Shown here: piece by piece, positions 9,707 to 64,000 of the stretch | Position numbering within the stretch: position 1 is the stretch's first letter | Layout of the letters: each line of letters opens with the position of its first letter | DNA from: a candidate division CSSED10-310 bacterium | Lineage (GTDB): Bacteria; CSSED10-310 | DNA length: 64,000 bases | Direction: 5' to 3' | Assembly (NCBI GenBank): GCA_016931515.1 | Contig: JAFGEQ010000019.1 | Span: 160,700-224,699 of the forward strand | Position numbers and translations under genes: made by a program | The notes under the pieces: model-generated | The model's database searches: none | Told to the model about the DNA's origin: nothing | Seen by the model: the letters and a program-made list of their open reading frames with translations, nothing else

Positions 9707-9725
9707 TGTTCGAAGAGGAGCCGTT

Positions 9726-22844: not shown

Positions 22845-24179
22845 ACCTCCAGTGCGGATGTTGTTCATGATCGAAGCATGATAGTGCCTTGAAACGGCTT
22901 TCAATTTTTGAAAACTGTTTTCATTGACCAGTGAATCCGAATGGTCCGGTGCGCGAAGGGGATTTCTGACCCATTCGATCAAAGGCTTAGTAGTGGCAGA
23001 GACTGAAAAATGTGAATCGCAGTAAACGAATGCCCGTTCCGCATTCGATTTGATAAATTCCGGATTATGTATGGCTTCCGTAATCACACTAACAAGGCCC
23101 TCTGTATCCTCAGGCTGAAACGTTGATCCCAGGGCTTCCTGGCGAATAACTCGAGACAATTCGCATAATTCCGACGTGACAATCGGTAGTCTCATCTGCA
23201 TCCAATCCATCAGTCGATTCCGGCTCCCAAGAATGCCTTCGTAAGAAAACAGATCGATATTTATTCCGATATCTGATTCCTGGACACAGGCTGGAACCTC
23301 GTTAAACGGTATCCACCCACGCATAACAAAGCGATTCCGGAATTCAGACCCTTCGATTCGATTAAGAAAATGCTTGTATGTCAGTTCATCATGCGAGGCA
23401 ATTTCCCCGCCGGTACTGACAAAATAAACTTGCGGGAATCGCTGGAACACGCGTTCCAAGGCTTCAAACAACGTATTCACATCAGTCCACGTATTGTATC
23501 CGCCACTCCACAAAATGATAAATGCATCCCGAGGTACAAGGACACCTCGAAGCACCGGTTCGGACGGAGGGTCCAACGGCAGATTCTCATTCATTGAACA
23601 GGGTATAACCCTCGTAAACTGATAACCGGTTGTGGCACGGTTGAGTCGAAACCGTGTGCCGAGTTCGCCAATTGTTGCATATGATTGCGGATTTGAGACA
23701 ACTGACAGCACATCCGCTCTGTCGAGGATGGATTCTTCCTGTCTCCATAATTGCGAGATGTAGTAATTATCTCTGAATACCTGTGATTTGGTTTGAGCTT
23801 CAGCCATGACATGTCCAAAAAGATCTGCCCAGATAGGGCGGTCGGTTATCAGTTGTGTGGCCATATAAGATGGAAAGATTGTCGCTCCGACAATGCAATC
23901 CGGCTCGAAGTTGTCATGAATCCTTTGGAGCCAGGCGCTGTTTTCGAATATTTCCTGTCGGACCGAGTAGTAAATGAGATTGCCATGTTCTTCTGCCATG
24001 GCTGGTTCTGTCGTAACGTTTTTATAAGCAGCGAGGTGGCGACTGCAGATCAGGCAGAGTCGGTTCCCGTCCTCCAGCAGAGGGCGAACGAATTGCCAGG
24101 TTCGTTTACCAGGCGCCAGTGTACACGTATCGTTTTCAGTAGGCAGCGGACTCAATCCCAACACCAGAACACGTTTCAT
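22776..24179 (-). CDS. Glycosyltransferase, GT4-like (GT-B) domain; paralogue of the N-terminal half of the next gene
   Basis: N-terminus MKRVLVLGLSPLPTEN... parallels MTRLLVFGFAPLPFEN... in the next gene. Shared WSGGYNTWTD motif. Preferred start is the Met giving an ATGA overlap with the upstream gene. Confidence 0.65.
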   Translation of the reverse strand: MKRVLVLGLSPLPTENDTCTLAPGKRTWQFVRPLLEDGNRLCLICSRHLAAYKNVTTEPAMAEEHGNLIYYSVRQEIFENSAWLQRIHDNFEPDCIVGATIFPSYMATQLITDRPIWADLFGHVMAEAQTKSQVFRDNYYISQLWRQEESILDRADVLSVVSNPQSYATIGELGTRFRLNRATTGYQFTRVIPCSMNENLPLDPPSEPVLRGVLVPRDAFIILWSGGYNTWTDVNTLFEALERVFQRFPQVYFVSTGGEIASHDELTYKHFLNRIEGSEFRNRFVMRGWIPFNEVPACVQESDIGINIDLFSYEGILGSRNRLMDWMQMRLPIVTSELCELSRVIRQEALGSTFQPEDTEGLVSVITEAIHNPEFIKSNAERAFVYCDSHFSVSATTKPLIEWVRNPLRAPDHSDSLVNENSFQKLKAVSRHYHASIMNNIRTGGLLHTIRWMFGRSPLIRRFIRMS

Positions 24180-41186: not shown

Positions 41187-43412
41187 TCAGGCGGCCCGAC
41201 GCAATAGGAAACTTCCGGAAATTAGTATGAGCCCTCCGAAGAAGAATCCCGTCATCGGGATACCCGCCACCGGTAGAAAGAATATGGCGACTATCAGTGC
41301 TGAGACTGCCGCTCCGGCGAGGTCCATAAAATAGAGACACGGCAGGTGATCGGGATACTCTCTGGAAGCGAGAACGAATTGGCTTCCGCACAAGGCGGCA
41401 CAAAGCAGGGACGATAAGAAAATGATTTCCACAGGGATGTCCCTTCTTTGGTTGGTTGTGATCATCAGGCCAATTAACAGGAGACCGAGACCGAACTGGA
41501 CCAGGGCGATTCTACTGGGTCTGATCGATGTTAGACGACCGGTTAATGCGCTGCCGATCGACAATCCAAGGGCGAAGAGACCGATCAGCAGACCTGCTTC
41601 ATGATACAGAGCGCCTGTTCGGAGTTGCAGCATGAACATCAGCAAAATTTGGGTGATCATTGCGACTGAACCGGTGATGCTGACTGCTAGCATTACTTTT
41701 GCTTTCCGGCGATTCAGGAGGAAATGCAGGGGGATGGCGATGAACAGCGTTATGAGGGCGACACTTCGAATATGGGTCAACCATAAATGGGATCGTGAAT
41801 TTATGGAGGATTGCCACTGGGAGTGCCATAAGTTCAGATAAACGGGTAAGATAAGCGGTCGAAGATCGGTAGAACAATCCGAGAACGTATCTTCATCCAG
41901 GGCGGATTGAAATGTCTGCAATGCCTGAGGACTCATTGTATAGGGGAGATATGCGTCGATGGGATACAGGGAGGAAATTCCAGATTGAGCAATCCGGTGG
42001 AGAATCGTCTCAACCGGTACAGGACCGGTGGTATCTGGATGGATGAAAATATGAATTGTATCTCCGGGGATAACAGTCATGGCATCATGTGAAAATACGC
42101 TCCGGATTGATCGAAATACCATGCCGGCAAAACGAACCTGTTCGGGACTCATCATGTTCTCAGATCCGGAAATGGTCATTCCGAAAATTCCGTTTGTTGC
42201 CAGAACCCGCTCGATCTCACGGTAAAAATCTATGGAGTAATAACGAGAGGCATTCAATGAAAGGGGTAGGGGTGCACATGAGATGATGATATCAAACCGG
42301 TGATCCGGTGCCGAATCCAGGGCGATGCGGGGATCCTGAGAATGAAAACGTAAATTCGTCATCTCATCCCGGGGTAGAACTCTGGCAAGATCTTCAGGTT
42401 TCAGGCGAGTTAACGGGAACATATCCAGTGCCACTGCCTCAACATCTGCTCCCGGAAATTGACCGGTTATTGTTGCCATGTGAGTCCAGACTCCATCCAG
42501 GAGGAGAATATTAACTGGATTTGGATGCAACGCCAGGGCGACTACAGCAGTTTCTTCGTCAGGACGGGTTATCGCACCATGTGTGATTAATGTTCTATTG
42601 TAAAAAAGACTCAAACCATCCTGGTATTCGATCAGGTGCCAGCGCCCGTAAACGGAATCAAAAACCTGGCGGATAGTATGACCGGGCCAGGCCGATGCAT
42701 CAAGGGTCAGGCTGAGATGCTGTCCATAATGAACTAATGTAGTACCGATCATCAGTATCGGCACAACAGAAAGTATTGAGCTGTTAAGCAGTTTAAAACG
42801 AACTGAAACGCCGTGCATCCCAATTCCGGCAAGTAGAGGTATTCCCATGATCAGAACCACGCCTGCCAGTATCAGAGTGCTGGATGAAAGTGGATGGATC
42901 AGATGGGTCAGGACAGCACCCGTCAGAGCACCGAGTGATTCAGATATGTAGATAATGCCCGGGTGGTTGGAACCCGAGCGACGGATCAGGTTAACAGTCA
43001 GCGCAAACAGCATTCCGTTTAACAAACAGAAAGGGATCATTGTTATCAAAGGGATTATGGTGAAATTCCGGATTCCCGGTATTTCTCCGGGTGTCGACTT
43101 CAACCATGCCGGAGCGGCCCGGAACGCAGCCAGAGTGAAAGGTAACAGCACGGCGAGGAGCAGTGGAAGATTCCGGATTATTCGCGGTGACAGCGACAGT
43201 CGACTCCCAGCAAAACTACCTGCGCCTGTTGCGATCAGCCAGAGACCCAGAACGACAGCTATGCAGAGTTCGTTGTTTCTGCCGGCAGCCAGGCTTTCCT
43301 GCAGAAGCAGTATCTGGAGTGTTGTGCCGAAATATCCTGCCGCTGCCGCGATGAGGCAGGATTGTACGCTCAATGAGGAAGGTTTCACTTTATCACTCCA
43401 TCTGTGATACAA
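41187..43412 (-). CDS. Fused polytopic membrane domain / spermidine-synthase-like (PABS) protein
   Basis: About 12 TM helices at the N-terminus and further TMs at the C-terminus flank a spermidine-synthase-like Rossmann domain (LLLDGVWTHM..., FDIIISCAP). Confidence 0.65.
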   Translation of the reverse strand: MYHRWSDKVKPSSLSVQSCLIAAAAGYFGTTLQILLLQESLAAGRNNELCIAVVLGLWLIATGAGSFAGSRLSLSPRIIRNLPLLLAVLLPFTLAAFRAAPAWLKSTPGEIPGIRNFTIIPLITMIPFCLLNGMLFALTVNLIRRSGSNHPGIIYISESLGALTGAVLTHLIHPLSSSTLILAGVVLIMGIPLLAGIGMHGVSVRFKLLNSSILSVVPILMIGTTLVHYGQHLSLTLDASAWPGHTIRQVFDSVYGRWHLIEYQDGLSLFYNRTLITHGAITRPDEETAVVALALHPNPVNILLLDGVWTHMATITGQFPGADVEAVALDMFPLTRLKPEDLARVLPRDEMTNLRFHSQDPRIALDSAPDHRFDIIISCAPLPLSLNASRYYSIDFYREIERVLATNGIFGMTISGSENMMSPEQVRFAGMVFRSIRSVFSHDAMTVIPGDTIHIFIHPDTTGPVPVETILHRIAQSGISSLYPIDAYLPYTMSPQALQTFQSALDEDTFSDCSTDLRPLILPVYLNLWHSQWQSSINSRSHLWLTHIRSVALITLFIAIPLHFLLNRRKAKVMLAVSITGSVAMITQILLMFMLQLRTGALYHEAGLLIGLFALGLSIGSALTGRLTSIRPSRIALVQFGLGLLLIGLMITTNQRRDIPVEIIFLSSLLCAALCGSQFVLASREYPDHLPCLYFMDLAGAAVSALIVAIFFLPVAGIPMTGFFFGGLILISGSFLLRRAA

Positions 43413-45906: not shown

Positions 45907-45982
<76 letters not shown>

Positions 45983-46009
45983 TCGATTAGAAGGTAAGCT
46001 GGTTCAAAA

Positions 46010-46083
<74 letters not shown>

Positions 46084-46132
46084 ATCGACAGGAATCCCTG
46101 GCGATATGTCCTCGGGATTCAGAGTAGTGGAA

Positions 46133-46208
46133 TGGTGAGTGTAGCTCAGTTTGGTTAGAGCGCCTGACTGTGGATCAGGAGGTCGAGGGTTCAAATCCCT
46201 TCACTCAC
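46133..46208 (+). tRNA. tRNA-His (anticodon GTG), with encoded G-1
   Basis: Acceptor GTGAGTG/CACTCAC with an extra 5' G pairing to discriminator C. Anticodon loop CTGTGGA. Confidence 0.75.
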
Positions 46209-46250
46209 CCTGTTTGTTTTGCACACGGGTCCCCAGGTCCTTGTGTGCCA

Positions 46251-46324
<74 letters not shown>

Positions 46325-46338
46325 ACATCTTATTTGCT

Positions 46339-46420
46339 CGCGAGGATGGCGAAATTGGCAGACGCCCTGGACTTAGGATCCAGTGCCGCAAGGCGTGGGG
46401 GTTCGACTCCCCCTCCTCGC
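46339..46420 (+). tRNA. tRNA-Leu (anticodon TAG), long variable arm
   Basis: Acceptor GCGAGGA/TCCTCGC, anticodon loop CTTAGGA, variable arm TGCCGCAAGGCGTG, T-arm GGGGGTTCGACTCCCCC. Confidence 0.75.
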
Positions 46421-46492
46421 ATGCTGGTGATCCCGAACGAGTCCCCTTACGGAACTCCTGCAATAAATAAAAATGATGGATGAGGTAATGAT

Positions 46493-50967: not shown

Positions 50968-53106
50968 ATGATAAGGAATAAAATTGTTAGGGCATCAGTC
51001 ATTATACCTGTTGAGCTTATAGCATTTTCAGTTTTTCTCGCACTGGCTACCGGGTTGATCTCGCAATCCGACAGGCAATTCGCCGCTGGAGAACCCGTAT
51101 GGGGGATTCTTCGGCCAGTGATGGAATTACTGAGAACAACCGGTTTGTTGATGTGCCATATTCAGAAAGATTTTTACGCAGTGCTCATCGCCGGATTATC
51201 CTTATCCGTATTCCTTGCTGCCATTGCCACATTTAGATGGAGCCGCTGGTCGGGTCTTTTTCTGGCCGCTGCCCTGTCGATTTATTGTGCGGCCAGACTC
51301 TCGCTAATCGGCAATACATCTGTCGCAGCAATCCACTGGTTGCTTTTGGGCATATCATTCAGTGTTGCAGTCATATCGGCAGCATGTCGTAAACGATCCG
51401 ATTTGTCGGCTCCGCAGCAGGGAACGGATGAATGTGAGGACAGGGTCTCTATCGGTACATCCATGAATTTGATGTATTTTGTGAATCTTTTGATTATTCT
51501 TTCAATCGCTTTTGCATTCCGGATGTATCGAATCGATATTTTACCTCCGGGCGAGGCGCAGCACACGGCTGAGTGGGGGATGCTGGGCGCTGTGCAGGCA
51601 GCGGAACATTCACCGGGAATTCGTGATACCCAAGACAGGTCTTTTTTTCTGGAGCAGTTACGTCTTCGGCTGATTGTAGAACCTCATCAACAGGGTCTGA
51701 ATATACTTGCGGATTGGCTGCTGGCGGGCTGGTTCAGGCCGTCAATTGTTGTTCAACGATCAGCAACGGCGGTGATGGGTCTTGTCAGTGTCCTGGTGTC
51801 ATATTGGGTCGGCTGGTTGTTGTTTGGTCCGTTTGTGGCGAATGCAACTGCTTTTTTGATGGCTGTTTCACCGTGGCATGTCACGCATTCGCGTTATTCA
51901 AGCATCGAACATATAATTGCTATTCTCCTTGTTACACTGACAATGGTATTCCTGTTGCGTTTTCTAAAAAACAGGTCGATATGGACATTAGCAGGTCTGA
52001 TATTGCTTCTGGCTGCGGATTTTCATGTATATGTTACCGCACAATTCATTGTTCCTGTGGTCATTCTGGTTTGGCTTTTATCGATAATCAAGTGTCGGAA
52101 AAAACGCTGGATGTCTTTCGTTGTCATGCTAGTCTCACTGCTGATAGTAAGTGTAGTGATTGCTCCTAAAACCGGTCTTTATGGGTTGAAGGATAACGTG
52201 AAGTTACTCAATACACAGATTGAGGAACATCCGGATTATGCAATTCAGAATGACTGGGTTGTCATGCAAAACGCGGTCAAATTGGCAAGGGGGTTATTTT
52301 TAGATGGTCCTGGTGATGCCTGGTATGACAAACGTGGTTACCTGGTCTGGCCGGTATCAATGCTGTTGGTCATCGGATTAGGCTACGCATTGACATTTAT
52401 CGGAAAATTTCGTTATCAGGCTGTTCTGATCTGGTTTTGTATCGGACTGATTCCGACACTGCCTTCAGCGGTTGTCGCGCCTCGACGAATTTTATGTGCC
52501 ATGCCGGCTATCTATTGCCTGGCAGGGATCGGCGCAGAGTATATTGGGGTGACGCTACTGGCAAAAATAACTAAGGGGAGAATTTTAAAGTGGATCATTA
52601 TTCCTGTTTTGGCTCTTGCGATCGCTTCGGGAGCATGGGTTGTTATTGAGGACAATGTCGTGGTTGCAGAAGTACTGTGTAATGGACAGGAGAGGCGATT
52701 GGCGGAGATTGCCTGTACTTACGTGAACAACTATCGAGTTATCATGTTGTTTGAGCCGCATACACGTCGGGAGAAAATATGGATGGCGTGCGGTGACGCC
52801 GGATTGGAGGCTATGAAACGCATCGAATTTTATCCAAGTTTGGAAGCGTTTGAATCCGCTTTAAGCCAACCTGTTTCGTCCGACCTGGAACGGATTCCCA
52901 GTTCCAGCGTTGTCATTATTTTTCCGGAGAGTGATTCGGTTCAGACAAAGATTACTATTCTACAGACACTTTTTCCGGGTGGAGCGCTTCGGGAATATCG
53001 TTTTGATCCACATTTTAAAGATCATGCGCAAGGTCAGCCCTGCTGCAGGGCATGGGTTGTTCCAGCGAGTGTGACATCCGGTATTGAGCCAGGTTTGCAG
53101 AATTGA
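50968..53106 (+). CDS. Polytopic membrane protein, GT-C-fold glycosyltransferase-like (ArnT/PMT-like)
   Basis: 712 aa with at least 12 predicted TM helices and a soluble C-terminal domain. It is the first of a run of GT-C-like genes. Confidence 0.5.
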   Translation: MIRNKIVRASVIIPVELIAFSVFLALATGLISQSDRQFAAGEPVWGILRPVMELLRTTGLLMCHIQKDFYAVLIAGLSLSVFLAAIATFRWSRWSGLFLAAALSIYCAARLSLIGNTSVAAIHWLLLGISFSVAVISAACRKRSDLSAPQQGTDECEDRVSIGTSMNLMYFVNLLIILSIAFAFRMYRIDILPPGEAQHTAEWGMLGAVQAAEHSPGIRDTQDRSFFLEQLRLRLIVEPHQQGLNILADWLLAGWFRPSIVVQRSATAVMGLVSVLVSYWVGWLLFGPFVANATAFLMAVSPWHVTHSRYSSIEHIIAILLVTLTMVFLLRFLKNRSIWTLAGLILLLAADFHVYVTAQFIVPVVILVWLLSIIKCRKKRWMSFVVMLVSLLIVSVVIAPKTGLYGLKDNVKLLNTQIEEHPDYAIQNDWVVMQNAVKLARGLFLDGPGDAWYDKRGYLVWPVSMLLVIGLGYALTFIGKFRYQAVLIWFCIGLIPTLPSAVVAPRRILCAMPAIYCLAGIGAEYIGVTLLAKITKGRILKWIIIPVLALAIASGAWVVIEDNVVVAEVLCNGQERRLAEIACTYVNNYRVIMLFEPHTRREKIWMACGDAGLEAMKRIEFYPSLEAFESALSQPVSSDLERIPSSSVVIIFPESDSVQTKITILQTLFPGGALREYRFDPHFKDHAQGQPCCRAWVVPASVTSGIEPGLQN

Positions 53107-53232: not shown

Positions 53233-56208
53233 GTGAGAGGAAACGATTCGATGGAAAATGAAACAACAACTTCAAGGGTCAATACCGGTGACAAATTTAT
53301 AGGTGGTCTGACATGGAGCACATGGCTCTGGATTGGACTTTTTGTTTTTGTGGCGTTCACTCGTTTTCATCATCTGGGTGACAAACCTTTTCACCATGAT
53401 GAGAGCCTTTATGCCAAATACATCTGGAACTTTCATACAGGACAGGGGTATCAGTATGATCCGATGCAGCATGGTCCATTTCTTTTTCATGTCAGTCAGC
53501 TTGTGCTGTTCCTGTTCGGAGTATCGAATTACACGATACGCATTGTTCCGGCTCTGACGGGTATCTGTTTGATCGGCCTGTTCTACCTGATCCGGCGACG
53601 ATTACCGCCGGGCGTTGCCTTGATGACCGGCTGGTTATTCGCAATCAACTCGGTATTCATGTACTTTCAGCGTTTTCTGCGCCATGATCCGCTGTTTTCT
53701 CTGTTTGCTGTTGTTCTAATCTATCTGGCTTTCCTGTGGTTCAAGGATCGAAAAGCATGGCAGTACTATACTTTCTGCGCGACTGCCGCCATTCTCTATT
53801 GTATTAAAGAGAACGCCTTTGTCCATTATCTCACGATGTATCTCTTTATGATTATTTTTGCCCTGTATTGGATGCTCGGACAGAAAAAGAAATTCCGGGA
53901 TCTACTGACCAACTATCCCTTATCCACAAAAACATTTGCCGCTGTCTCCTTCTGGGGTGTCTTTTTTGTCGTATATGCTCTGGTCAACCAGTTCGGAAAA
54001 GCATCATTCGACAACTGGGAAAAGGCGTTACATACATATTGGATTATCGTCTACGTTGTTTTCTTCACCCTGGTAGGGTTGATGGTTTATCTCGGAGAAC
54101 TGGTGCGGATTAAAACCGACAAAAAACCTATGGGGCTCTCACCTGAATTTTTCCGTGACAGTCATGTTTTTGCGATAGGAACCGTGATTTTTTTCGGAAT
54201 CATTATCATTCTATATACGACTCTGACATTCAACCCGAAGGGATTTTGGGGCGCGATGTACGAATGGTATACCTATTGGCTGCATCAACACTCCATCGCC
54301 CGTATCGCCGGTCCTTTTCATTACTACCATCACCAGATGCTGATCTATGCATTTCTGCCTCTGGCGGTAACGATTTTTGCAGTGCTTGGACGCGGTCTTC
54401 GTAGAAATCCGGTTATTTTTGCTGCTTACATCATCGGAACCATGATTCTATTCTATGGTTTTTCCAATCTTGACAGAGCGCTGCCGGGAACAAAAACGAA
54501 TCTCTTTACCAACGAGCATCTGGCGATAGCAATCTCCGCTTTCGTCGGAGGAGTGCTTATGATGCTGTCATATCTCCGTGAAAGAATGATTTTAAAGTCA
54601 TTTTTGATCTGGTGGATCACGATGGCTTATATCATGTACTCATACCTCCAGGAAAAAGTACCCTGGCTTGTTATGCATATCATCACTCCAATGATTTTAT
54701 ACGCTGCGCTTGTTCTCATGGAGGCATTTCAGGATCGGGACACCATAACCAGATGGATGCGCCGGGTCATCCAGTGCTTTTTTGCGATAATGGTCATATA
54801 TGCGCTTCATACCTCCTTCCAATTGTGCTGGTGGCATGAAGCCGATCCGGTGGAACAGATGGTTTATGTTCAAACCACATATGAAGTTCCAATGCTTGTC
54901 GAGGAGATGGAGAGGATTGCCTATTGGCAGAACACACTGTTGACCAAAGAGCTTCCGATGGTGATTAACGGTCATGCCACATGGCCGTTATATTGGTATC
55001 TTAGGGACTGGTCGGGAATCAGCTACGGCACGAATGTTAATCCTGCCACGCATCTGATGGTGATATGCAACTGGGAAGATCGGTACAAGTTTGCTGAAAA
55101 GTGCGGAGACCAATATGTAGCCCGGCAATACGGCCTGCGTGCGTGGTTTCTACCGAAATACGAAAACGTCGCCAAGGGAGGAAAATTCTGGCGCAACGCA
55201 TGGAAATGGATAGCCTTCAGAGAAAAATTCGATAAAACTCTCTATGGGTCACAGCAAATCTGTGTATTCACCCGAAAAGATGTCTCAATGTTTCAGAACA
55301 GTGTTGATCTGGGAACTCCTCCGAAACCTCCGGAAGAGAGAAAACCGCCTCGCACGACATCTATCCAGGCAGAAAGTGCGATGGAGTTCGGTCTTTACGG
55401 TTCGCAATCGGGACGTTTTAATACACCGAAAGATATCTCAGTCGATAGTTCCGGGAATATCTATGTGGCCGATATGTGGAACCACCGCATCCAGAAATTT
55501 GCTCCCGATGGAAAATTCCTTCTCCAATGGGGTTCGAAAGGGAGCGGCAACGGGGAATTCAACCAACCGACCGGTATTGGTATCGGATCAAAAGGTCAGG
55601 TGTTCGTTGCTGATACATGGAATCACAGGATTCAGAAGTTTGATGAGAACGGGAAATTCATCATGACGTTCGGTGATGACAAAATGCTATGGGCTCCCAA
55701 GGATGTCATGGAGGATGACGATGGGTACATTTACGTATCCAATACCGGCTTCCATAAAATAATGAAGTTTACACGGAGTGGCAGTCGTGTCTGGGAAGTC
55801 GGCGAGAAGGGCAGTGGGCCGAAGGAGTTCACGGAGCCGGTTGGGATGTGTATGGACAAACAGGGTCTGTTATATGTAGCGGATACTGCTAACAAAAGGA
55901 TTTCGGTCTTTGACAAAAGTGGTAATCATATGAAGCAGATCGCTGTATACGGATTGGAAGAATATTATTCAGAGCCGTTTATAATGGTAGACAGCAACAC
56001 TCAGCGGATCTACATGACGGATTCCAGGAATAACCGGATACAAATCTTTGATTTAAACGGCAATCTTCTGAATTTCTGGGGCTCTGAAGGGTCCGAAAAA
56101 GGGCAGTTCAGGTTACCGACGGGTATTTTTATAGCCCAGGACAAGGTCTATGTGACGGAAGCGCAGAATCACAGGGTGCAGGTCTTCAATGTCGCCTCAC
56201 TGAAGTGA
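53233..56208 (+). CDS. GT-C-fold (PMT_2/ArnT-like, TIGR03663-like) membrane glycosyltransferase fused to C-terminal six-bladed NHL-repeat beta-propeller
   Basis: DE motif after TM1 (FHHDESLYAKY), as in PMT/ArnT enzymes. About 600 aa polytopic. The C-terminal repeats have the NHL signature (GNIYVADMWNHRIQKFAPDGKF; GQVFVADTWNHRIQKFDENGKF; LYVADTANKRISVFDKSG; IYMTDSRNNRIQIFDLNG; VYVTEAQNHRVQVF). Confidence 0.7.
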   Translation: MRGNDSMENETTTSRVNTGDKFIGGLTWSTWLWIGLFVFVAFTRFHHLGDKPFHHDESLYAKYIWNFHTGQGYQYDPMQHGPFLFHVSQLVLFLFGVSNYTIRIVPALTGICLIGLFYLIRRRLPPGVALMTGWLFAINSVFMYFQRFLRHDPLFSLFAVVLIYLAFLWFKDRKAWQYYTFCATAAILYCIKENAFVHYLTMYLFMIIFALYWMLGQKKKFRDLLTNYPLSTKTFAAVSFWGVFFVVYALVNQFGKASFDNWEKALHTYWIIVYVVFFTLVGLMVYLGELVRIKTDKKPMGLSPEFFRDSHVFAIGTVIFFGIIIILYTTLTFNPKGFWGAMYEWYTYWLHQHSIARIAGPFHYYHHQMLIYAFLPLAVTIFAVLGRGLRRNPVIFAAYIIGTMILFYGFSNLDRALPGTKTNLFTNEHLAIAISAFVGGVLMMLSYLRERMILKSFLIWWITMAYIMYSYLQEKVPWLVMHIITPMILYAALVLMEAFQDRDTITRWMRRVIQCFFAIMVIYALHTSFQLCWWHEADPVEQMVYVQTTYEVPMLVEEMERIAYWQNTLLTKELPMVINGHATWPLYWYLRDWSGISYGTNVNPATHLMVICNWEDRYKFAEKCGDQYVARQYGLRAWFLPKYENVAKGGKFWRNAWKWIAFREKFDKTLYGSQQICVFTRKDVSMFQNSVDLGTPPKPPEERKPPRTTSIQAESAMEFGLYGSQSGRFNTPKDISVDSSGNIYVADMWNHRIQKFAPDGKFLLQWGSKGSGNGEFNQPTGIGIGSKGQVFVADTWNHRIQKFDENGKFIMTFGDDKMLWAPKDVMEDDDGYIYVSNTGFHKIMKFTRSGSRVWEVGEKGSGPKEFTEPVGMCMDKQGLLYVADTANKRISVFDKSGNHMKQIAVYGLEEYYSEPFIMVDSNTQRIYMTDSRNNRIQIFDLNGNLLNFWGSEGSEKGQFRLPTGIFIAQDKVYVTEAQNHRVQVFNVASLK

Positions 56209-56268: not shown

Positions 56269-58647
56269 GTGGTACAGGGTATGCTTCTGGTCATCGCGTG
56301 GTGGCTTGGGATACAGGTGATCGGTTGGGTTGCCTGGCCCATATCTGCCAGATTTTTTCGCAGTTACCCCGATAGCGGATATACGCTGAACAAGGGATTG
56401 GGCCTGATCCTGGTGGCCTTTGTCAACTGGTTTCTGGTCTCCATTCACCTCTTGTCTTTCTCCCTATGGTCAATCCTTGCATCCATCCTGATTATCGCAG
56501 CGATCTCCTGGTATTTCAGAGCGGATACTCCTGAATTGATTAAAAATTTTCTCAAAGCAGGGCGACGGCAAATCCTGATCACCGAGTTCGTGTTTCTAGC
56601 GGCATTCATGGGTTTTGCGTTGGTGCGAATGGGCAATCCCGATATAGCCCAGACCGAAAAGATGCCGGATTTCGCATTCCTGACAGGGATCGTCACGAGT
56701 GATCATTTCCCGCCCAAGGATCCCTGGTTTGCTGATGGCAGTATCAATTATTTCTATTACGGCCATTATCTCATCGGTTTAATGACGAAAATGTCGGGTG
56801 TTGCGCCGGAGTTCGGTTACAACCTGGGGATTGCCTTTATTTTTGCCATGACTCTCCTGAATGCCATCGGTGTTTCGCTCGGGCTGATTCGCAGACTCTG
56901 GTACGGGATTCTGGGAGGATTATTTGTCGCATTTATAGGGAATCTCGATTGCGCTGTTCAGTTCTTTTCTAACCTGGGGGACTTCACATCCGGAGCAAAA
57001 AAGATCGTACCTTTTACATGGTTCAACTGGTGGATGAGTTCAAGGGTTATTCTCCGTGAAGGCATAGATATAACTATCAACGAGTTCCCGTTCTGGAGCT
57101 ATATTCTGGGTGACCTGCATGCGCACATGAATGTTGTGCCGATATCCCTGTTGGTTCTTGCAATCATTCTGGAGATGTTCCGTCAATCCGGAAGCGGTTT
57201 GGATATTCTGGGATCCGGCAGGGAAAAATGGTTCCGTCTGCCGATCATCGCCATCGTTCTGGGTGCTCTCCCGTGTGCCAATACCTGGGACCTTCCGACT
57301 TACTATGCATTGATTGTGGCTGCCCTGATACTCGGACGGCAGTTCATGCACCATGATGGCGTCTTATCCGTTTCTGAATCCGACGGGTCGGTATCTGTGC
57401 TGAAAATACTCCTGTCCCCCCTGATTGAGTTGATCCGGCGATTGAAAAATTCCATTAAAAACGGGTGGCAAAATCAGGGATGGTCGGAGCAGCTTTTTTC
57501 GTGGCTGGCGATCATTCTGGTCGTTGCACTCTCATTTATATTATACCTGCCGTTCCACCTTAATTTCCATCCGGCTGGTACGGAAGGTATACGCGTCGTC
57601 GATCCTAAACAATACACATTGGCCGGCGACTTTCTGACGATATATGGCTTCTTTTTTTACTGCATGCTGCCGTTTGCCACTGCCTTGGCCGTATCGCGTT
57701 TCAGCCGGCTCAATGACCGTCTGAAACCCTTGGCTGGAATAGTCCTTGGCGTTTTCTTCATTGTGTTGCTGGTGGGCTTTAACCGTCTGATGATTGCCCT
57801 TTGCATGATGTTCCTTTTTATGATTCTTGCCATTCCTTTGAAGCGAGACGATCCGGATATTAAAGAAAAGTTCTTCGTCCTGGCGTTATCGGTCACCGTG
57901 CTGTTGATTTTGCTGGGTTGTGAGTTTTTTTATATCAAGGATGCATATGGAAAAACCCTCGAAAGGCAGAATACAATTTTTAAATTCTATTACCAGGCAT
58001 GGATATTTTGTGGTATTGCATCGATATATGCGGTGTATTGGATTCAGAATCGGTCCAAACGGGTATTCAGCAATCTGTGGGAACCGGGTTATAGAATCCT
58101 GCTTCTCTGTGCATTGATGTTTCCATTCGTTGCGTCAGTGGTCAAAACCGGTAATTTCCGATCATTTACTGACCCGTCACCGTATTCCAGGGCGACGTTG
58201 GATGGAATATTTTATATGACATGGCAGTATCCCGGAGATCATGAAGCAATTAAATGGCTCAGGCGGCATGCTGATCCGGATCAGCGGGTTTTGGAAGCCA
58301 CTGGTCCGGCTTTTTCCCATTATGGACGGATCAGTGCCGGAACAGGAATGGCTACAATCCTGGGATGGGGTAACCATGAAAATATCTGGCGGGATGGATC
58401 CTGGAAAATCGTTACAGAAAGAACGAATGAAGTGAAACGCGTCTATTTGACCGGTAGCCAGACTGATATTCGTAATATACTCGATAAATACAAGATTGAT
58501 TATGTGTATTTTGGAAAACTGGAACGGGAACAATACCAGGATTCCGATCCGGATCGATTTTCCTTCCTGGAAAAGGTCTTGGAAACCAAGGATTCGGACC
58601 AGAAGATGACGTATCTATTCCGGTACAATCGGACCCCTGTACGATAA
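56269..58647 (+). CDS. DUF2298 / 'YYY' membrane protein (TIGR03662-like), partner of the upstream GT-C protein
   Basis: Hallmark motif DGSINYFYYGHYLIGLMTKMSGV, about 16 TMs and a C-terminal soluble domain. GTG start with GGGAGGG RBS. Confidence 0.7.
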   Translation: MVQGMLLVIAWWLGIQVIGWVAWPISARFFRSYPDSGYTLNKGLGLILVAFVNWFLVSIHLLSFSLWSILASILIIAAISWYFRADTPELIKNFLKAGRRQILITEFVFLAAFMGFALVRMGNPDIAQTEKMPDFAFLTGIVTSDHFPPKDPWFADGSINYFYYGHYLIGLMTKMSGVAPEFGYNLGIAFIFAMTLLNAIGVSLGLIRRLWYGILGGLFVAFIGNLDCAVQFFSNLGDFTSGAKKIVPFTWFNWWMSSRVILREGIDITINEFPFWSYILGDLHAHMNVVPISLLVLAIILEMFRQSGSGLDILGSGREKWFRLPIIAIVLGALPCANTWDLPTYYALIVAALILGRQFMHHDGVLSVSESDGSVSVLKILLSPLIELIRRLKNSIKNGWQNQGWSEQLFSWLAIILVVALSFILYLPFHLNFHPAGTEGIRVVDPKQYTLAGDFLTIYGFFFYCMLPFATALAVSRFSRLNDRLKPLAGIVLGVFFIVLLVGFNRLMIALCMMFLFMILAIPLKRDDPDIKEKFFVLALSVTVLLILLGCEFFYIKDAYGKTLERQNTIFKFYYQAWIFCGIASIYAVYWIQNRSKRVFSNLWEPGYRILLLCALMFPFVASVVKTGNFRSFTDPSPYSRATLDGIFYMTWQYPGDHEAIKWLRRHADPDQRVLEATGPAFSHYGRISAGTGMATILGWGNHENIWRDGSWKIVTERTNEVKRVYLTGSQTDIRNILDKYKIDYVYFGKLEREQYQDSDPDRFSFLEKVLETKDSDQKMTYLFRYNRTPVR

Positions 58648-58661
58648 TTTAAGGAGAGACC

Positions 58662-61600
58662 ATGGAATCTACCGACCGATGGACTGAGACAGTTTCCGGG
58701 AAACGACGCAATTGGCTGTTGTTCGTCCTGTTTCTCGCAGGTCTGGGATTGCGGTTGTACGGTTATGAATGGGGATTCCCTCATCACTTCCATCCGGATG
58801 AACGACAGATTGTCGATTTTCAAGCTCCCAAGGTGGAGCTGGATATACTGAATCCTGTGAAATCGATTCCTCCGCTCCTTCAGGGTGACTGGAAAACTCT
58901 GAATAATATGGTATTCAAAATGAATACCAAGTTTTTTGCCTATGGTCCGCTACCAATGTATACACTGGCCGTCATCGTGGAGTGTCAGGATGCGATCAAT
59001 ATGCAGATCCGGTCATTCTTCGCTGACCGTCCCGGAGTGAGCCTGGAAACCCGGACTAAAATCAATAAATGGTTTCCGAGGATCAAGGACGGAAAAGGTC
59101 GGATTGTAACAGGGCGGATACTTTCCGGAATTCTGTCTGCGTTGACAATTCTGATCATCTTCCGCCTGGGTGCCTACCTGTACAATTCAAAGGTCGGTCT
59201 CCTGGCGGCGGTCTTCTTCACGTTCACCGTGCTCTCGATCCAGCAAGCGCATTTCATGATTGTTGATGGACCTCAAACCTTTCTCGTGACCTGGGCGATG
59301 TACCATGTTGTTAGGATCGCCATGGGGGACCGCCGACGTGATTATTATCTGGCGGCGGTTTTTATCGGGCTTGCAATGGCAACCAAGTTCAGTACAGCAC
59401 CTATCGGCCTGGCTTATATTCTCGCTCATTTTCTGTCGTTGCTGCGGGGCCGGCGTAAAGGCATGAATAACTGGTACCATTGGATTGCAGGCGGATTATT
59501 GGCGATTATCGTTATGACAATTGTCATGCCTTTCTGGATTCTCGATACCAATGAGTTTTTTCATGACATCCGCGAACAGAGAGATATGGTTACCGGCGTG
59601 GCGGATCTGCCTTACACAATCCAGTTCGAAGGAACCGCTCCATTTGTTTATATGATAAAAAACATGATCCTATGGTCTCTGGGTCTTCCACTCGGATTGG
59701 CTGCCTACATCGGCTTGATCGCAGCTGTCCGACGGATTTGGAAAAAACCTGAAGATCTTGGAAATATGGTCATACTCGCACTGGTAATTCCGCTTCTATA
59801 TTTTAACGGAATTTTCTTTGCGAAATTTTTAAGATATACCCTGGTTACCATTCCATTTTTTGTGATTTTTGCAGCACGCTGGCTGTACGGCATGAAATCA
59901 TGGGCCGGAAGAGGATGGGGAAGGTTTGTAACCGGCATTGTTCTCGTTGGTACAATCGGATGGGCTATGGCTTTCCAAACGATCTATCTGGATCCGCACA
60001 CCCGGTTGCAGGCATCCGACTGGATCTATCAGAATGTAGATAAGGGGAAACATATTGTCCAGGAAAGCGGTTGGGATGATGGTCTGCCCGTAAGTACAAA
60101 TAACGGAGATCCGGGGCGATATAGTATTCGGCAGCTCGGCATTTACAAGGAACCGGACAACGAGCAACGGGCGGATGTCATGGCTGAAATTCTGGAATGG
60201 GGTGACGTGATTGTTCTCTCATCCAGGAAGCATTATGGGTCCGTGACACGTGTTCCCGATCGATACCCCGTTTCATCGAATTTTTATAAATTGCTATTTG
60301 ACGAAAAATTGGGTTATCAACATGTGCAGACATTCGACAATCCTCCTGGACTCTGGAAACTTCGGTTTCGAGATGATGCGGCTGATGAAAGTTTCCGTGT
60401 GTATGAGCATCCCCGGGTTGATATTTTTATCAAGGAAAGCGGTTTAACGGAATCGCGTTTGTCCGCACTCCTTCTGGCGCCTCCACCCGAAGTCGCGGAC
60501 ATGACATATAATGAATTGATGACACGCCGACCGCCAACGGAGATCGGGTCACGCGTCAATTTCCCGATCATGAGATGGCTGCTGGTTCTTGAGATACTCG
60601 GGTTCATATGTATACCGTTTGCTTTCGTGGTTTTCACCCGGTTCGATCATAAGGGATATCCCTATACCAAACTGATCGGTTTGCTTCTTACCGCCTACAT
60701 GTGCTGGCTGTTACCGAGCCTGCAGTACCTGCCGTTTTCCCGAACCCTGATCATTGGAATGCTAGTCGTTCTGGCTTGGATCAATCATTCTATATACAGG
60801 ACTCACAGGGATGCTATTCGCACCATGGTCAGAGAGCGGTGGTGGAGTATTGCCGGGTACGAGATCCTTTTCCTGTCGGTATTTTGTATTTTCGGGTTAT
60901 TGAAGAGCTGGAATCCGGATATTTTCTGGAGTGAAAGCTCAATGGATTTCGGTTTTATTAATGCTGTGCTGCGATCAGACTATTTTCCGCCACAGGATCC
61001 ATGGGTTCAGGGTCAGGGCATTAATTATTACTACTATGGTCATTACCTTGCGGCTTTTATGACCAGACTTACTGGAGTGGAACCCCATTACGGGTATAAT
61101 CTGTTTTTTATTACGATTCCATCTTTGGTCGCGCTGACGATCGCGGGTATTCTGATGACTCTGACCCGCAGAATTTGGGTATCACTGTTCGGCGTGCTCT
61201 TTGCCATCTTCATCGGCAATCTGGATGGATTGCCTCAGATGGCCAATATCTGGGCCCGGCAGACCAGGGGAACTGAATGGTTCAGGTATGCCGATGCTTT
61301 TCAGAGTGCGGTCGGTCATGTTTTGAATCTGGGACGGCAAGATGCGCATTTCCGGTTCTTTCGATCCGCACATGAATTGATAAAACCAACTGTCCATGAG
61401 TTTCCTTATTGGAGTTATAACTTCATGGATTTGCACGCGCATACTATCGCGACGGTATTGAGTACATTCTTCCTGGCCTTACTGTTCGTTCTCCTGCGTA
61501 ACGCCGGAGGAGGGATCCGGATTTTCGGTGATCAGAAACAACAGCAGGTTGTTACTCTGATCATCCTGTGGGTGACGTATGGAGCAATGATATCGACAAA

Positions 61601-64000
61601 CTCCTGGGACATCCCGACTCAGATGGTTCTAATGATTTTGATATCCCTCTGGATTATGGTTTTTGCAGAACGAAAACCCCGAATCCGATTGCGTCCGATT
61701 GTTGACCTGGATGTCGAGCGGATGGTTGCAAACACTCCGTCTGCTGATGAACAAATCGATTCCTCGACGCCCATGGCGGATACAGATGCAGAAACACCTC
61801 AACTGGAAGATACGCTTGTGGCGGAGACTATTCCCGACCTGGTTGCCGGATCCGGGATGGACATGGAGGAAAAGCCTGGGGAAGATGAGGAACCATCGGT
61901 TGCCTCAGTGACTCAACGCAATGCTGTGATTGATGGAGATCTTGAATCGGATGATTCTCCTCCTGAAGCAGACATCTCTGATTCGGTTGAAAATCAAGTT
62001 TTACCGGAATCCGCCGGCAATGTTGATGAATTAGTGATTGAAGAATCTGATTTCGCTTCCATGGATGAAGAATCTGAGCTGATTGTCGGTTCTGAAATGG
62101 ACGTCGATGAAGAATCGGACATGTTGTCCGGTTCAGACTCGCAGGCGGAATCAGACGCGGAATCGGTGTCGGACACTGAATCGGACAGGCGACGATTCTC
62201 GATGCCACTGGATTCCATCAAGGATCATTCTGACGATCGAGAAGTTCCTGAATTCCAGGACTCCATCAAACGTCGCTGGCGTGCTGGTATTATCATCAAA
62301 TCGATCGAATGGCTTGGTAATCAGGTGTACAATGAGATAACAGGTTCTTGGAGATTTCTGTGGAATTTATTGTGGCCGGTCGCTTTAGTGATTCTGGGTG
62401 CCATGACACTTCATATGCCCTACCTGATGCATTTCCACCGAGCGGGTATGGGAGTCGGGACACTGTGGAAGTACAGGCAGACAACCAATCTTGATGGATT
62501 TCTGACAATGTTCGGTTTTTTCATTTTCATATTCATAACACAATTCATCCGCTGGTGGTGGGATGTTCAGAAGGAAAGGGGTCGCTCATCGGTACGCTCT
62601 GCAGGCATTCTACTGGGAATAATCATCTTGTTACTGATCGCCTGTCTGGGATTCATGCATTTCCCTGATGTTCCAGCGGACTTCTCCGTTCTGGCTATCA
62701 GTCTGTTCTTGATCTTATTGATCATTTCAATATTGATTGAGGGCTATCCGACGACATCCGAAGCATTTCCACTTATTCTTGCTCTGGCAGCGGTTGGAAT
62801 CACTGCAGGTTGCGAAATATTTTATATCCGTGATTTCTACCAGGGCGGTGATATGCGCCGATTCAACACAATTTTCAAATTTTATCTGCAGGCGTGGTTC
62901 ATGTTTTCCCTTGCATCCGGATACCTGATTGCACGACGAATGAGAATTCGTTCAAAACCTGCTCATATAAGCGGTGGCATGGCTTTCATGGCGCGGGTTT
63001 CATCATGGAGTTGGAATCTTGTATTCATATTTCTGCTGGGTGCGTCACTGATTTTTACATTCTGGGGAATTCATGCCAGGCATTATCATGATGAATACCG
63101 GAGGGTTAAGCTGCCGTTGACACTCGACGGCTGGGCATACATGAAGAAGGGTTTTAGAGAAGACATCATCAATGAGTACCGAGCCATTAACTGGCTCCAG
63201 CAGAATATTAAGGGCACACCGGTTATTCTGGAAGCCAGTGGCGCTGATTATCTCTATCAATATGGCGATATCTCTGCGAATACGGGACTTCCCACTGTAT
63301 TGGGATGGTGGAGTCATGTGGGCCAGAGAGAATATCTAATCAAGCGTAATCGGGGTAAAAACAGGAAAGACCGTGAAATAGATATCGGGAAGATAAAGCG
63401 AGATATCCTGACGATGTATAACAGCGCAGATATAGAGGAAGTATTATCGCTGCTCGGTCAATATAGAGTTCAGTATATATTCGTTGGCCCGACTGAAAAG
63501 TCAGAGTACAACTCATTGGGTCTGGAGAAATTTCGAGAGATGTCGGTTTTCATGACACCGGTTTATACCAATCCGGATGTTGTGATTTACAGGGTGAATG
63601 ATTACGGCCACAGTGTAGATCTATCGGATACGATCCAGGATAATGCCGCCCTTACTCGCCTTAAGGAGGAACTCACTGCCCGGGAAGAAGAAGAAACGAG
63701 GGCACAGAGAGCTGCTGAGATAGAGCGGGAGCGGAGAATGATGGAGCAGCCGCCGAAGAGCCTGCTCCGTGGAACTCAGGGCAAAGCCAGAGGCATGTTC
63801 GAAGAACCGCGATCAATGTGTGTCGCACCTGATGGATCTGTGTATGTTGCAGATTTCCGCAACCATCGCATTCAAAAGTACGGACCGGACGGCAATTGGC
63901 TTATGGCATGGGGTGAAACCGGTGATGAGCCTGGGCAGTTCAACGATATCTGTGATGTTGCTGCAAATACACGTTTTGTTTATGTTCTTGATACGTTCCA
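58662..64000 (+). CDS. Giant multidomain membrane protein: GT-C (PMT/ArnT-like) + DUF2298 'YYY' module + acidic linker + further TM/soluble DUF2298 C-region + NHL repeats; ORF still open at window end (>1779 aa)
   Basis: Not in the ORF track, which requires a stop. I translated it by hand in frame 0 from ATG 58662 (RBS AAGGAGAG) and spot-checked three codon stretches. It reads FHPDERQ (DE motif), then INYYYYGHYLAAF at about 61020, a D/E/S-rich tract at about 61700-62250, and an NHL blade VYVADFRNHRIQKYGPDGNW at about 63840. No in-frame stop was found. Confidence 0.7.
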   Translation, partial: MESTDRWTETVSGKRRNWLLFVLFLAGLGLRLYGYEWGFPHHFHPDERQIVDFQAPKVELDILNPVKSIPPLLQGDWKTLNNMVFKMNTKFFAYGPLPMYTLAVIVECQDAINMQIRSFFADRPGVSLETRTKINKWFPRIKDGKGRIVTGRILSGILSALTILIIFRLGAYLYNSKVGLLAAVFFTFTVLSIQQAHFMIVDGPQTFLVTWAMYHVVRIAMGDRRRDYYLAAVFIGLAMATKFSTAPIGLAYILAHFLSLLRGRRKGMNNWYHWIAGGLLAIIVMTIVMPFWILDTNEFFHDIREQRDMVTGVADLPYTIQFEGTAPFVYMIKNMILWSLGLPLGLAAYIGLIAAVRRIWKKPEDLGNMVILALVIPLLYFNGIFFAKFLRYTLVTIPFFVIFAARWLYGMKSWAGRGWGRFVTGIVLVGTIGWAMAFQTIYLDPHTRLQASDWIYQNVDKGKHIVQESGWDDGLPVSTNNGDPGRYSIRQLGIYKEPDNEQRADVMAEILEWGDVIVLSSRKHYGSVTRVPDRYPVSSNFYKLLFDEKLGYQHVQTFDNPPGLWKLRFRDDAADESFRVYEHPRVDIFIKESGLTESRLSALLLAPPPEVADMTYNELMTRRPPTEIGSRVNFPIMRWLLVLEILGFICIPFAFVVFTRFDHKGYPYTKLIGLLLTAYMCWLLPSLQYLPFSRTLIIGMLVVLAWINHSIYRTHRDAIRTMVRERWWSIAGYEILFLSVFCIFGLLKSWNPDIFWSESSMDFGFINAVLRSDYFPPQDPWVQGQGINYYYYGHYLAAFMTRLTGVEPHYGYNLFFITIPSLVALTIAGILMTLTRRIWVSLFGVLFAIFIGNLDGLPQMANIWARQTRGTEWFRYADAFQSAVGHVLNLGRQDAHFRFFRSAHELIKPTVHEFPYWSYNFMDLHAHTIATVLSTFFLALLFVLLRNAGGGIRIFGDQKQQQVVTLIILWVTYGAMISTNSWDIPTQMVLMILISLWIMVFAERKPRIRLRPIVDLDVERMVANTPSADEQIDSSTPMADTDAETPQLEDTLVAETIPDLVAGSGMDMEEKPGEDEEPSVASVTQRNAVIDGDLESDDSPPEADISDSVENQVLPESAGNVDELVIEESDFASMDEESELIVGSEMDVDEESDMLSGSDSQAESDAESVSDTESDRRRFSMPLDSIKDHSDDREVPEFQDSIKRRWRAGIIIKSIEWLGNQVYNEITGSWRFLWNLLWPVALVILGAMTLHMPYLMHFHRAGMGVGTLWKYRQTTNLDGFLTMFGFFIFIFITQFIRWWWDVQKERGRSSVRSAGILLGIIILLLIACLGFMHFPDVPADFSVLAISLFLILLIISILIEGYPTTSEAFPLILALAAVGITAGCEIFYIRDFYQGGDMRRFNTIFKFYLQAWFMFSLASGYLIARRMRIRSKPAHISGGMAFMARVSSWSWNLVFIFLLGASLIFTFWGIHARHYHDEYRRVKLPLTLDGWAYMKKGFREDIINEYRAINWLQQNIKGTPVILEASGADYLYQYGDISANTGLPTVLGWWSHVGQREYLIKRNRGKNRKDREIDIGKIKRDILTMYNSADIEEVLSLLGQYRVQYIFVGPTEKSEYNSLGLEKFREMSVFMTPVYTNPDVVIYRVNDYGHSVDLSDTIQDNAALTRLKEELTAREEEETRAQRAAEIERERRMMEQPPKSLLRGTQGKARGMFEEPRSMCVAPDGSVYVADFRNHRIQKYGPDGNWLMAWGETGDEPGQFNDICDVAANTRFVYVLDTF

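Follow-up and report, generated by a model that had tools for sequence, protein, structure and literature searches.

In other GT-C enzymes, TPR or MIR domains hold the acceptor or a partner, and AftD, EmbA/B/C and the TMTC/PMT_2-TPR proteins are GT-C enzymes whose recognition domains outside the cytoplasm are large. The protein described here, hereafter the giant, differs from all of these in that two GT-C cores stand in tandem in one chain and in carrying an NHL propeller, whereas those enzymes bear carbohydrate-binding modules or TPR. Compared with ArnT and PMT (PMT_2, PMT; CAZy families GT83 and GT39), the giant lacks a sequence-level match to the solved proteins, contains two GT-C cores per chain and has the NHL propeller in the place of the MIR domain. 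With DPY19 C-mannosyltransferase, the giant has 9% identity, no motifs in common and low TM-scores (0.26–0.39). Agl23 of Haloarcula hispanica (TIGR03663) is, like the giant, a PMT_2-type GT-C-like membrane protein; it handles lipid-linked sugars and flips lipid-linked glycan in liposomes (PMC11182771). The most similar proteins are those of the YYY family (TIGR03662/PF10060, DUF2298, 'Chlor_Arch_YYY'), including database-annotated PMT_2-DUF2298(-NHL or -TPR) proteins, with which the giant shares the TIGR03662 match, the YYYxG motif and the module order. The YYY family comprises 6146 clusters at 50% identity (E ≤ 1e-3). In the searchable literature, we found no experimental study of the YYY family or of PMT_2-YYY fusions, and no functional work on DUF2298, TIGR03662/3, GT-C combined with NHL, or tandem GT-C.

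The giant is encoded at the end of the window, i.e., the 64,000-nucleotide stretch of CSSED10-310 DNA analysed here, behind three genes of the same cluster. The features discussed below are the following (residues are those of the giant; all on the forward strand).

50968..53106, +, divergent GT-C membrane protein of 712 aa whose gene opens the cluster (weak PMT_2 match, hhalign)
53251..56208, +, 985-aa protein with a TIGR03663 (Agl23-type) GT-C domain and a C-terminal NHL propeller (TIGR03663 and NHL HMMs)
56281..58647, +, 788-aa stand-alone YYY protein (TIGR03662, 5.6e-157)
58662..64000, +, giant ORF, of whose 1980 codons 1779 lie in the window (stop-free translation, ribosome-binding site, source contig)
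58704..60041, +, transmembrane GT-C core of module 1, residues ~15-460 (PMT_2/PMT HMMs, AF2, Foldseek)
60042..60536, +, C-terminal soluble alpha/beta domain of module 1, residues ~461-625 (predicted secondary structure, conserved columns)
60567..61670, +, N-terminal half of module 2, residues 636-1003 (three extra transmembrane helices, then GT-C core)
61671..62336, +, acidic disordered insertion, residues 1004-1225 (low pLDDT, alignment of relatives)
62337..63086, +, C-terminal transmembrane half of module 2, residues 1226-1475 (DUF2298 profile positions 328-488, invariant columns, model)
63087..63611, +, C-terminal globular domain of module 2 with AglB/STT3-like fold, residues 1476-1650
63621..63761, +, charged helical connector, residues ~1654-1700 (a single helix in the AF2 model, module residues 1043-1076)
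63771..64000, +, first part of the six-bladed NHL propeller, which spans residues 1704-1972 and lies mostly beyond the window (NHL HMM, TRIM2/TRIM3 alignment)

The giant ORF is a genuine, conserved gene for a single-chain membrane protein and not an artefact. Translation from 58662 remains free of stops through the end of the window (1779 codons), for which the probability by chance is (61/64)^1779, or ~1e-37. The ATG at 58662 lies 7 nt 3' of the ribosome-binding site AAGGAGAG and 14 nt past the stop of the upstream gene. Promoter and terminator scans gave scores at chance level and carry no information. The true end was found on Logan contig SRR13394437_92269, reached via an ATG-start version of the upstream gene: the stop is located 603 nt (201 codons) outside the window, and the complete gene (L001:12269-18211 on this source contig) encodes 1980 aa with no in-frame stop along its length. 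The single reading frame claimed in the sequence-only reading held, as did its run past the window edge, and the motifs it quoted are present (FHPDERQ at residues 43-49, INYYYYGHY at 787-795, and the NHL sequence VYVADFRNHRIQKYGPDG at the window edge). That the long ORF might result from a misassembly or frameshift joining separate GT-C, YYY and NHL genes is conceivable in principle, given that all three families are encoded by separate genes directly upstream and an assembly can be chimeric, but this explanation is effectively refuted. The Logan contig is an independent assembly and is identical to the window across 17,607 shared bases; four independent MAGs from different projects, of which two bear the label candidate division CSSED10-310, have full-length orthologues that are 50-62% identical to the giant, each encoded by one ORF (1776-2012 aa) within a matching cluster whose gene order is kept; database relatives include 14 full-length protein clusters with 44-70% identity; the module junctions are conserved across the best 120 relatives; and the GC content is uniform. 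Furthermore, the paralogues are only ~30% identical and hence too divergent for mis-joining.

All three module families proposed for the giant were recovered above their curated cut-offs, with PMT_2 at 53.5 bits (cut-off 26.1) over the whole ORF, TIGR03662 at 427.9 (300.25), DUF2298 at 285 (27.8) and NHL at 32 (20). In residues 1-640, Pfam matches are to PMT_2 (9.5e-15) and PMT (4.4e-6). The AF2 model of module 1 has a pLDDT of 92.2 and a pTM of 0.91, and all 26 Foldseek matches to PDB with E ≤ 1e-3 are GT-C proteins, among them STT3, ALG12/9, AglB, ArnT, PglB, DPY19 and Pmt4; all are enzymes except for one GPI-transamidase subunit. Module 1 is a PMT_2-type GT-C domain, in agreement with the sequence-only reading. 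Its motif H44-P45-D46-E47, conserved to at least 90% across 93 sequences, is located in the predicted first external loop. The alpha/beta domain that follows the core contains the conserved motif DDxADESFxVYDHPKV (columns D571, D575, E576, H583 and P584) and is likely periplasmic, considering the topology of GT-C proteins and a K/R-rich loop behind the transmembrane helix that comes next. Topology here and below is based only on hydropathy, the positive-inside rule and AF2 helices. Assignment of module 1 to TIGR03663, the family of Agl23, was considered and rejected: there was no match at E ≤ 0.01, and the hhalign probability was 11%.

Module 2 is of the YYY type, consistent with the original assignment, and it too has the GT-C fold, with a C-terminal globular domain after the last transmembrane helix. 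The alignment used for structure prediction contained 40 sequences. In the N-terminal half, a putative periplasmic loop holds E758..D762..FPPxDPW..NYYYYG; within the YYYxG motif (N-Y789-Y-Y791-Y-G793), Y170, Y172 and G174 (module numbering) show no or almost no variation. The loop is followed by GNLDG (852-856), HEFPxW..D923-L-H925-A-H927 and W982, and the C-terminal transmembrane half has a conserved loop, D1391..R1400-x-N-T..K1406. As in STT3/AglB, the globular domain has an AglB-like fold. However, module 2 has no WWDYG motif, the motifs conserved in its globular domain being TLDGxAYM, EAxG and TGLPTVLGWxxH, and by our count it has three extra N-terminal transmembrane helices. STT3 HMMs matched neither module 2 (Pfam, E ≤ 10) nor the whole ORF (NCBIfam, E ≤ 0.01), and a lenient Pfam scan of the two halves (E ≤ 10) retrieved DUF2298 alone, with no match to any other GT-C family. 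The probability of the hhalign match between modules 1 and 2 is only 33.6%, so that their common origin is backed by fold rather than by sequence. For either membrane module, no relative among the solved GT-C proteins in PDB was detectable by sequence: whether the query was the single protein, a profile built from 40 sequences or one built from 46 NHL-less members, the searches gave NHL domains or noise and nothing else.

The DUF2298 match is interrupted by the acidic insertion. The acidic stretch itself had been recognised correctly (60 D+E within residues 1000-1200; 62 in 229 aa), but it is not a linker between modules, as it lies inside the YYY module. AF2 gives pLDDT < 50 over module residues 391-580, and a tandem-repeat scan of the ORF revealed nothing relevant, so the insert is no array of DNA repeats. 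The insertion is clade-specific, being confined to the 14 closest relatives (P0001-P0014), in 13 of which it spans 160-420 aa (78 aa in P0010); elsewhere, a loop of ~13 residues occupies this site (median 13 aa, 96 aligned sequences). With the insertion, proteins of the giant's clade exceed most NHL-bearing relatives in length by ~300-500 aa. The flanks are K/R-rich, and the insertion probably sits in a cytoplasmic loop of module 2.

The NHL module expected at the window edge is present in full on the source contig. The complete C-terminus scores 101.3 bits against the NHL HMM (cut-off 20; 1.2e-29, three stretches), and residues 1704-1963 align without a break to positions 14-273 of the TRIM2/TRIM3 NHL domains in PDB, which are six-bladed; the match to the NHL region of Thin has an E-value of 2.6e-35. 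An extracytoplasmic location of the propeller is supported by the predicted topology. In addition, a 969-977-aa protein of the cluster has a signal or lipobox sequence immediately ahead of its NHL domain, suggesting that the NHL domains of this locus reside in the periplasm.

Architectures of this kind are common among database proteins. The order GT-C, YYY, NHL is found in 52 of the best 120 database relatives, whereas GT-C followed by YYY without NHL, in some cases with TPR, is found in 66. These proteins are named 'YYY domain-containing', 'DUF2298 domain-containing' or 'glycosyltransferase family 39' in their sources. The earlier impression of novelty is therefore valid only in that the architecture is without a characterised member; by sequence, the giant is best regarded as a further member of the catalogued YYY-fusion family, in which its own clade amounts to only two full-length clusters at 50% clustering.

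The giant had also been thought to reunite the modules encoded separately upstream. The families are indeed shared, but the upstream genes do not correspond to the giant's parts. The GT-C protein two genes upstream is a true TIGR03663 member with an NHL propeller (TIGR03663 1e-71, 242 bits, cut-off 126; NHL 5.9e-39), and the N-terminal module of the giant is not. The stand-alone YYY protein is 32% and 30% identical to module 2 and is its old paralogue. The 712-aa protein has a weak PMT_2 match (1.6e-4) and is linked to the module 1 profile by hhalign with 91% probability. Orthologues of this protein are found in two related loci (L002, L005), and the 985-aa Agl23-type and 788-aa YYY proteins are kept in L002-L005. 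The latter loci also document a GT2 protein and an NHL-first GT-C protein (the source contig was read to L001 position 22254). The GT2 has two C-terminal transmembrane helices, and in NCBIfam it matches AglJ, Dol-P-hexose transferase, PpgS, PgfS and ArnC best; this GtrB/DPM1/AglJ-like protein is likely a polyprenyl-phosphate-sugar synthase. The related loci contain another four to five GT-C paralogues, several of which have NHL propellers. BamA is encoded at positions 1263-3641 of the window, suggesting that the host is a diderm.

The giant probably acts, with its two GT-C modules and propeller, in periplasm-facing glycosylation of an envelope acceptor that depends on polyprenyl-phosphate sugars. 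The single inner-membrane chain would consist of two complete GT-C-fold modules in tandem, each with its own periplasmic C-terminal domain, ending on the periplasmic side in the helical connector and the six-bladed propeller. The donor used by each module is most likely a polyprenyl-phosphate-linked sugar, which the module would pass to an acceptor on the periplasmic side of the inner membrane. The argument is drawn from all GT-C enzymes characterised so far and from the acidic residues and histidines conserved in the predicted periplasmic loops; both modules are putatively competent for catalysis. The propeller most likely grips the putative acceptor or a partner protein, as judged from the role of TPR and MIR domains elsewhere and from the swapping of NHL, TPR or nothing in the family. 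The GT2, the Agl23-type protein, the stand-alone YYY protein and the four to five GT-C paralogues supplied by the locus and its relatives may together build or decorate an envelope glycoconjugate in this diderm of candidate phylum CSSED10-310. The sequence-only reading had proposed that the giant glycosylates or anchors a surface polymer, which is likewise a hypothesis.

A different division of labour, in which one module is the transferase and the other a non-catalytic GT-C-fold translocator of lipid-linked sugar or a scaffold for donor delivery, would turn the fusion into a flip-and-transfer machine. We consider this unlikely: in both modules, acidic or histidine residues are invariant within the loops that hold the catalytic residues of GT-C enzymes, module 1 does not belong to TIGR03663, and the locus already has a dedicated Agl23-type protein. 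Rather doubtful is the possibility that the YYY module is an STT3/AglB-like oligosaccharyltransferase transferring a glycan en bloc from polyprenyl diphosphate to protein, with module 1 adding or priming with single sugars from polyprenyl phosphate; the AglB-like fold of the globular domain is in line with it, and the missing WWDYG motif and STT3 HMM match are not. It is very improbable that the propeller, instead of binding, acts on the product as an enzyme, be it a lyase, a lactonase or one of the amidating-lyase type. The SGL match exceeds its cut-off (40.2 versus 26.3), Vgb_lyase is matched weakly and below threshold (39.9 bits versus 50), and PDB matches include the peptidylglycine amidating lyase domain; but the top matches are binding-type NHL domains (Thin, TRIM71, TRIM2/3 and the PknD sensor), and relatives have TPR or nothing at the same position. 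We retain glycosylation by two GT-C transferases, assisted by a binding propeller, as the preferred reading.

The value of the giant gene lies mainly in an annotation correction and an extra example, not in a new type of system. The YYY family to which it belongs is large (6146 clusters), with its function absent from the searchable literature. A bolder proposal, which we regard as a long shot, is that YYY represents an unrecognised sister family of STT3/AglB/PglB and that PMT_2-YYY-NHL proteins together with Agl23-type translocators form a widespread, hitherto undescribed periplasmic protein-glycosylation system. The YYY module combines a GT-C core and an AglB-type C-terminal domain with TLDGxAYM in the place of WWDYG, and the hosts in question are uncultivated bacteria, Chloroflexi and some archaea. 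If this proposal is true, the fusion would be evidence that the co-occurring TIGR03663 and TIGR03662 proteins share one pathway. More generally, three results, namely, the fold, the fusion and the locus partners, provide a testable hypothesis for the whole family: the GT-C fold with the AglB-type C-terminal domain, the recurrent fusion to a PMT_2-type GT-C and the GT2 and Agl23 neighbours suggest that YYY proteins may function in periplasmic or extracellular glycosylation with lipid-linked donors.

The 1980-aa protein read from window position 58662 (+), which we call the giant, belongs to TIGR03662/PF10060, a catalogued family of uncharacterised function. Its frame holds 1779 stop-free codons at window 58662-64000 (+), opens with an ATG that has AAGGAGAG ahead of it and lies 14 nt past the stop of the upstream gene, and is absent from the ORF listing solely because it leaves the window. 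The source contig, L001 (Logan assembly SRR13394437_92269), was found by exact-match lookup with the upstream gene (ATG start at 56281) and is identical to the window at 17,607/17,607 shared bases. On L001 the frame stops after 1980 aa, 201 codons past the window end. The real single-frame ORF claimed by the sequence-only reading is thus confirmed, the true stop that it sought by extending the contig is found, and all motifs that it named occur in the translation. At L001:18190-18211 the 3' end of the gene shares 22 nt with that of a convergent gene for a GT-C of 1026 aa. Five consecutive tRNA genes lie at window 45908-46421 (Pro-TGG, Arg-TCT, His-GTG, Arg-TCG, Leu-TAG); the independent Logan contig starts at window 46394, within tRNA-Leu, and that assembly therefore broke at the tRNA cluster.

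The GT-C, YYY and NHL modules had been identified correctly. Pfam matches PMT_2 at residues 150-286, DUF2298 split in two stretches, and NHL, and the NCBIfam model TIGR03662 'Chlor_Arch_YYY' scores 427.9 bits (cut-off 300.25). The complete C-terminus matches NHL with 101 bits, the six-bladed NHL domains of TRIM2/3 align in a single piece to residues 1704-1963, and the top PDB match of the propeller is Thin (2.6e-35). Three genes lie upstream:

712-aa gene: divergent GT-C (Pfam, hhalign)
985-aa gene: genuine member of TIGR03663 (Agl23 type), itself equipped with an NHL propeller (Pfam/NCBIfam)
788-aa gene: stand-alone, full-length YYY protein (Pfam/NCBIfam)

The suggestion that the upstream modules recur in the giant holds for the families, which are shared, but not as a simple joining of neighbours, because the N-terminal GT-C (module 1) has no TIGR03663 match in NCBIfam, its hhalign probability against the membrane domain of the 985-aa neighbour is just 11%, and the YYY part (module 2) is 30-32% identical to the stand-alone YYY.

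The AF2 model of module 1 (residues 1-640), of very high confidence (pLDDT 92.2, pTM 0.91), has a soluble alpha/beta domain after the core, at about residues 461-625. All 26 significant Foldseek matches in the PDB are GT-C proteins, including STT3, ALG12/9, AglB, ArnT, PglB, DPY19 and Pmt4; a GPI-transamidase subunit is the only non-enzyme. At least 90% of 93 sequences keep H44-P-D46-E47, and the same holds for R152, Q194, H197, D202, K242 and R391-Y392. At the level of fold, and at no other, the YYY module is a GT-C core followed by a C-terminal domain of STT3/AglB type, judging by the figures listed with this assignment for ALG12 (17.6), ArnT (16.8), AglB (14.7), STT3B (14.6), Pmt4 (14.5), AftA (14.5, 487 aligned residues) and PglB (14.0). 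The module has no cross-match to other Pfam families and no match in the PDB by sequence or profile, and against module 1 hhalign gives a probability of only 33.6%. About 30 columns are invariant in 40 diverse members, among them E758, Y789, G793, E913, D923, H925, H927, W982, R1400, N1402, T1403, G1490, E1524 and H1552 (giant numbering, i.e. module 2 numbering + 619).

Topology was derived from AF2 helices, hydropathy and K/R counts, with the C-terminal domains of GT-C proteins taken as extracytoplasmic. Module 1 would accordingly end in the periplasm. Three extra TM helices open module 2, and their loops 659-670 and 715-726, being rich in K/R, are assigned to the cytoplasm. A 13-TM GT-C core comes next. 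This arrangement would place the YYY loop, GNLDG, HEFPxW..DLHAH, W982 and the D1391-K1406 loop in the periplasm, together with the AglB-like domain and the helix and propeller that come after it. The acidic stretch (window 61671-62336), previously taken for an inter-module linker, was misread: it falls inside the DUF2298 profile, splitting it between positions of about 305 and 328. It is predicted to be disordered and contains no DNA tandem repeats. Since its flanks are K/R-rich, as is the equivalent loop of relatives (median 13 residues), it is probably cytoplasmic, on a periplasm-facing enzyme. Only the 14 nearest relatives have a long acidic insertion here, which measures 160-420 aa in 13 of them and 78 aa in P0010; this insertion and the resulting size are the clade-specific features of the giant.

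The host, which carries a BamA gene at window 1263-3641, is diderm. Separate from this canonical BamA, a 1044-aa ORF (9456-12590, +) unites a Peptidase_MA_2 domain and PD40 propeller repeats with an Omp85 barrel at its C-terminus, an unusual outer-membrane fusion. A 741-aa ORF (41187-43412, -) has no Pfam match at E<=1e-4.

The architecture had also been regarded as unfamiliar, which was overstated, as it turns up commonly among metagenomic and MAG sequences. In a large protein collection 912 proteins match the giant at E<=1e-10, the best 14 being full-length proteins (44-70% identity, 1857-2126 aa). When six sub-modules were mapped onto the best 120 of these matches, 52 shared the order GT-C, C-domain, YYY, C-domain, NHL, and 66 had the same order minus NHL, some with TPR instead. 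Sources already name such proteins 'YYY domain-containing protein', 'DUF2298 domain-containing protein' or 'glycosyltransferase family 39 protein'. Searched exhaustively with HMMER, module 2 matched 6146 clusters at 50% identity (E<=1e-3), and for 1857 of these E was <=1e-30. Cluster lengths group at roughly 700-800, 1400-1700 and 2000-2700 aa, and the clade of the giant has only two full-length representatives in the whole set. We found no open-access paper on DUF2298/YYY function or on GT-C fusions with NHL.

A scan that covered one genome per species recovered full-length relatives as single ORFs in four MAGs (loci L002-L005; 50-62% identity, 1776-2012 aa), two of which are labelled candidate division CSSED10-310. 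The rival reading of the giant as an assembly artefact is thereby rejected. The order tig, clpP, GTPase, purE, folD, 712-aa GT-C, Agl23-NHL, YYY, giant is kept in L002 and L005, with most genes also in L003 and L004. Convergent to this run are a ~1020-1056-aa GT-C bearing NHL-like repeats, another GT-C of 714 aa, a ~970-aa NHL-first paralogue and, at the cluster end in all four loci, a GT2 of 320-324 aa with two C-terminal TM helices:

L002:23528-26437, -, NHL-first paralogue, 969-977 aa, orthologues in L003-L005
L002:26430-27392, -, GT2, last gene of cluster
L003:24039-25013, -, GT2 orthologue, last gene of cluster
L004:21934-22896, -, GT2 orthologue, last gene of cluster
L005:26900-27862, -, GT2 orthologue, last gene of cluster

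The paralogue has the reverse order, a signal/lipobox-like N-terminus followed by the NHL propeller and a PMT_2 GT-C; within this locus a GT-C core can thus carry its NHL propeller at either terminus, and a signal/lipobox directly ahead of the propeller agrees with periplasmic propellers. Elsewhere in the window, a second GT-C gene of other design (PMT_2 and TPR repeats, 677 aa, 20811-22844, +) lies near a 784-aa GT2 protein (24176-26530, -). GT-C enzymes bearing repeat-domain appendages seem to be plentiful in this genome.

In the best-supported reading, the giant would be a tandem glycosyltransferase in which both GT-C modules face the periplasm and draw on polyprenyl-phosphate-sugar donors, while the propeller recognises an acceptor or partner. 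Gene context favours a lipid-linked-donor pathway, because the top NCBIfam matches of the GT2 in the related loci L002-L005 are all polyprenyl-phosphate sugar synthases (AglJ at 1e-30, Dol-P-hexose transferase, PpgS, PgfS, ArnC), every one under its equivalog cut-off, and because an Agl23-family protein is encoded upstream, a relative of which, from H. hispanica, flipped a lipid-linked glycan in liposomes (PMC11182771). In rival readings, one module might instead be a translocator or scaffold, the YYY module might act as an OST-like en bloc transferase, or the propeller might itself be catalytic.

Glycosylation from lipid-linked donors stands as a testable hypothesis, and the giant matters as a member of a large uncharacterised family to which it applies, not as a new type of system. 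The most useful result is the fold assignment of YYY, a GT-C core plus a C-domain of AglB type.
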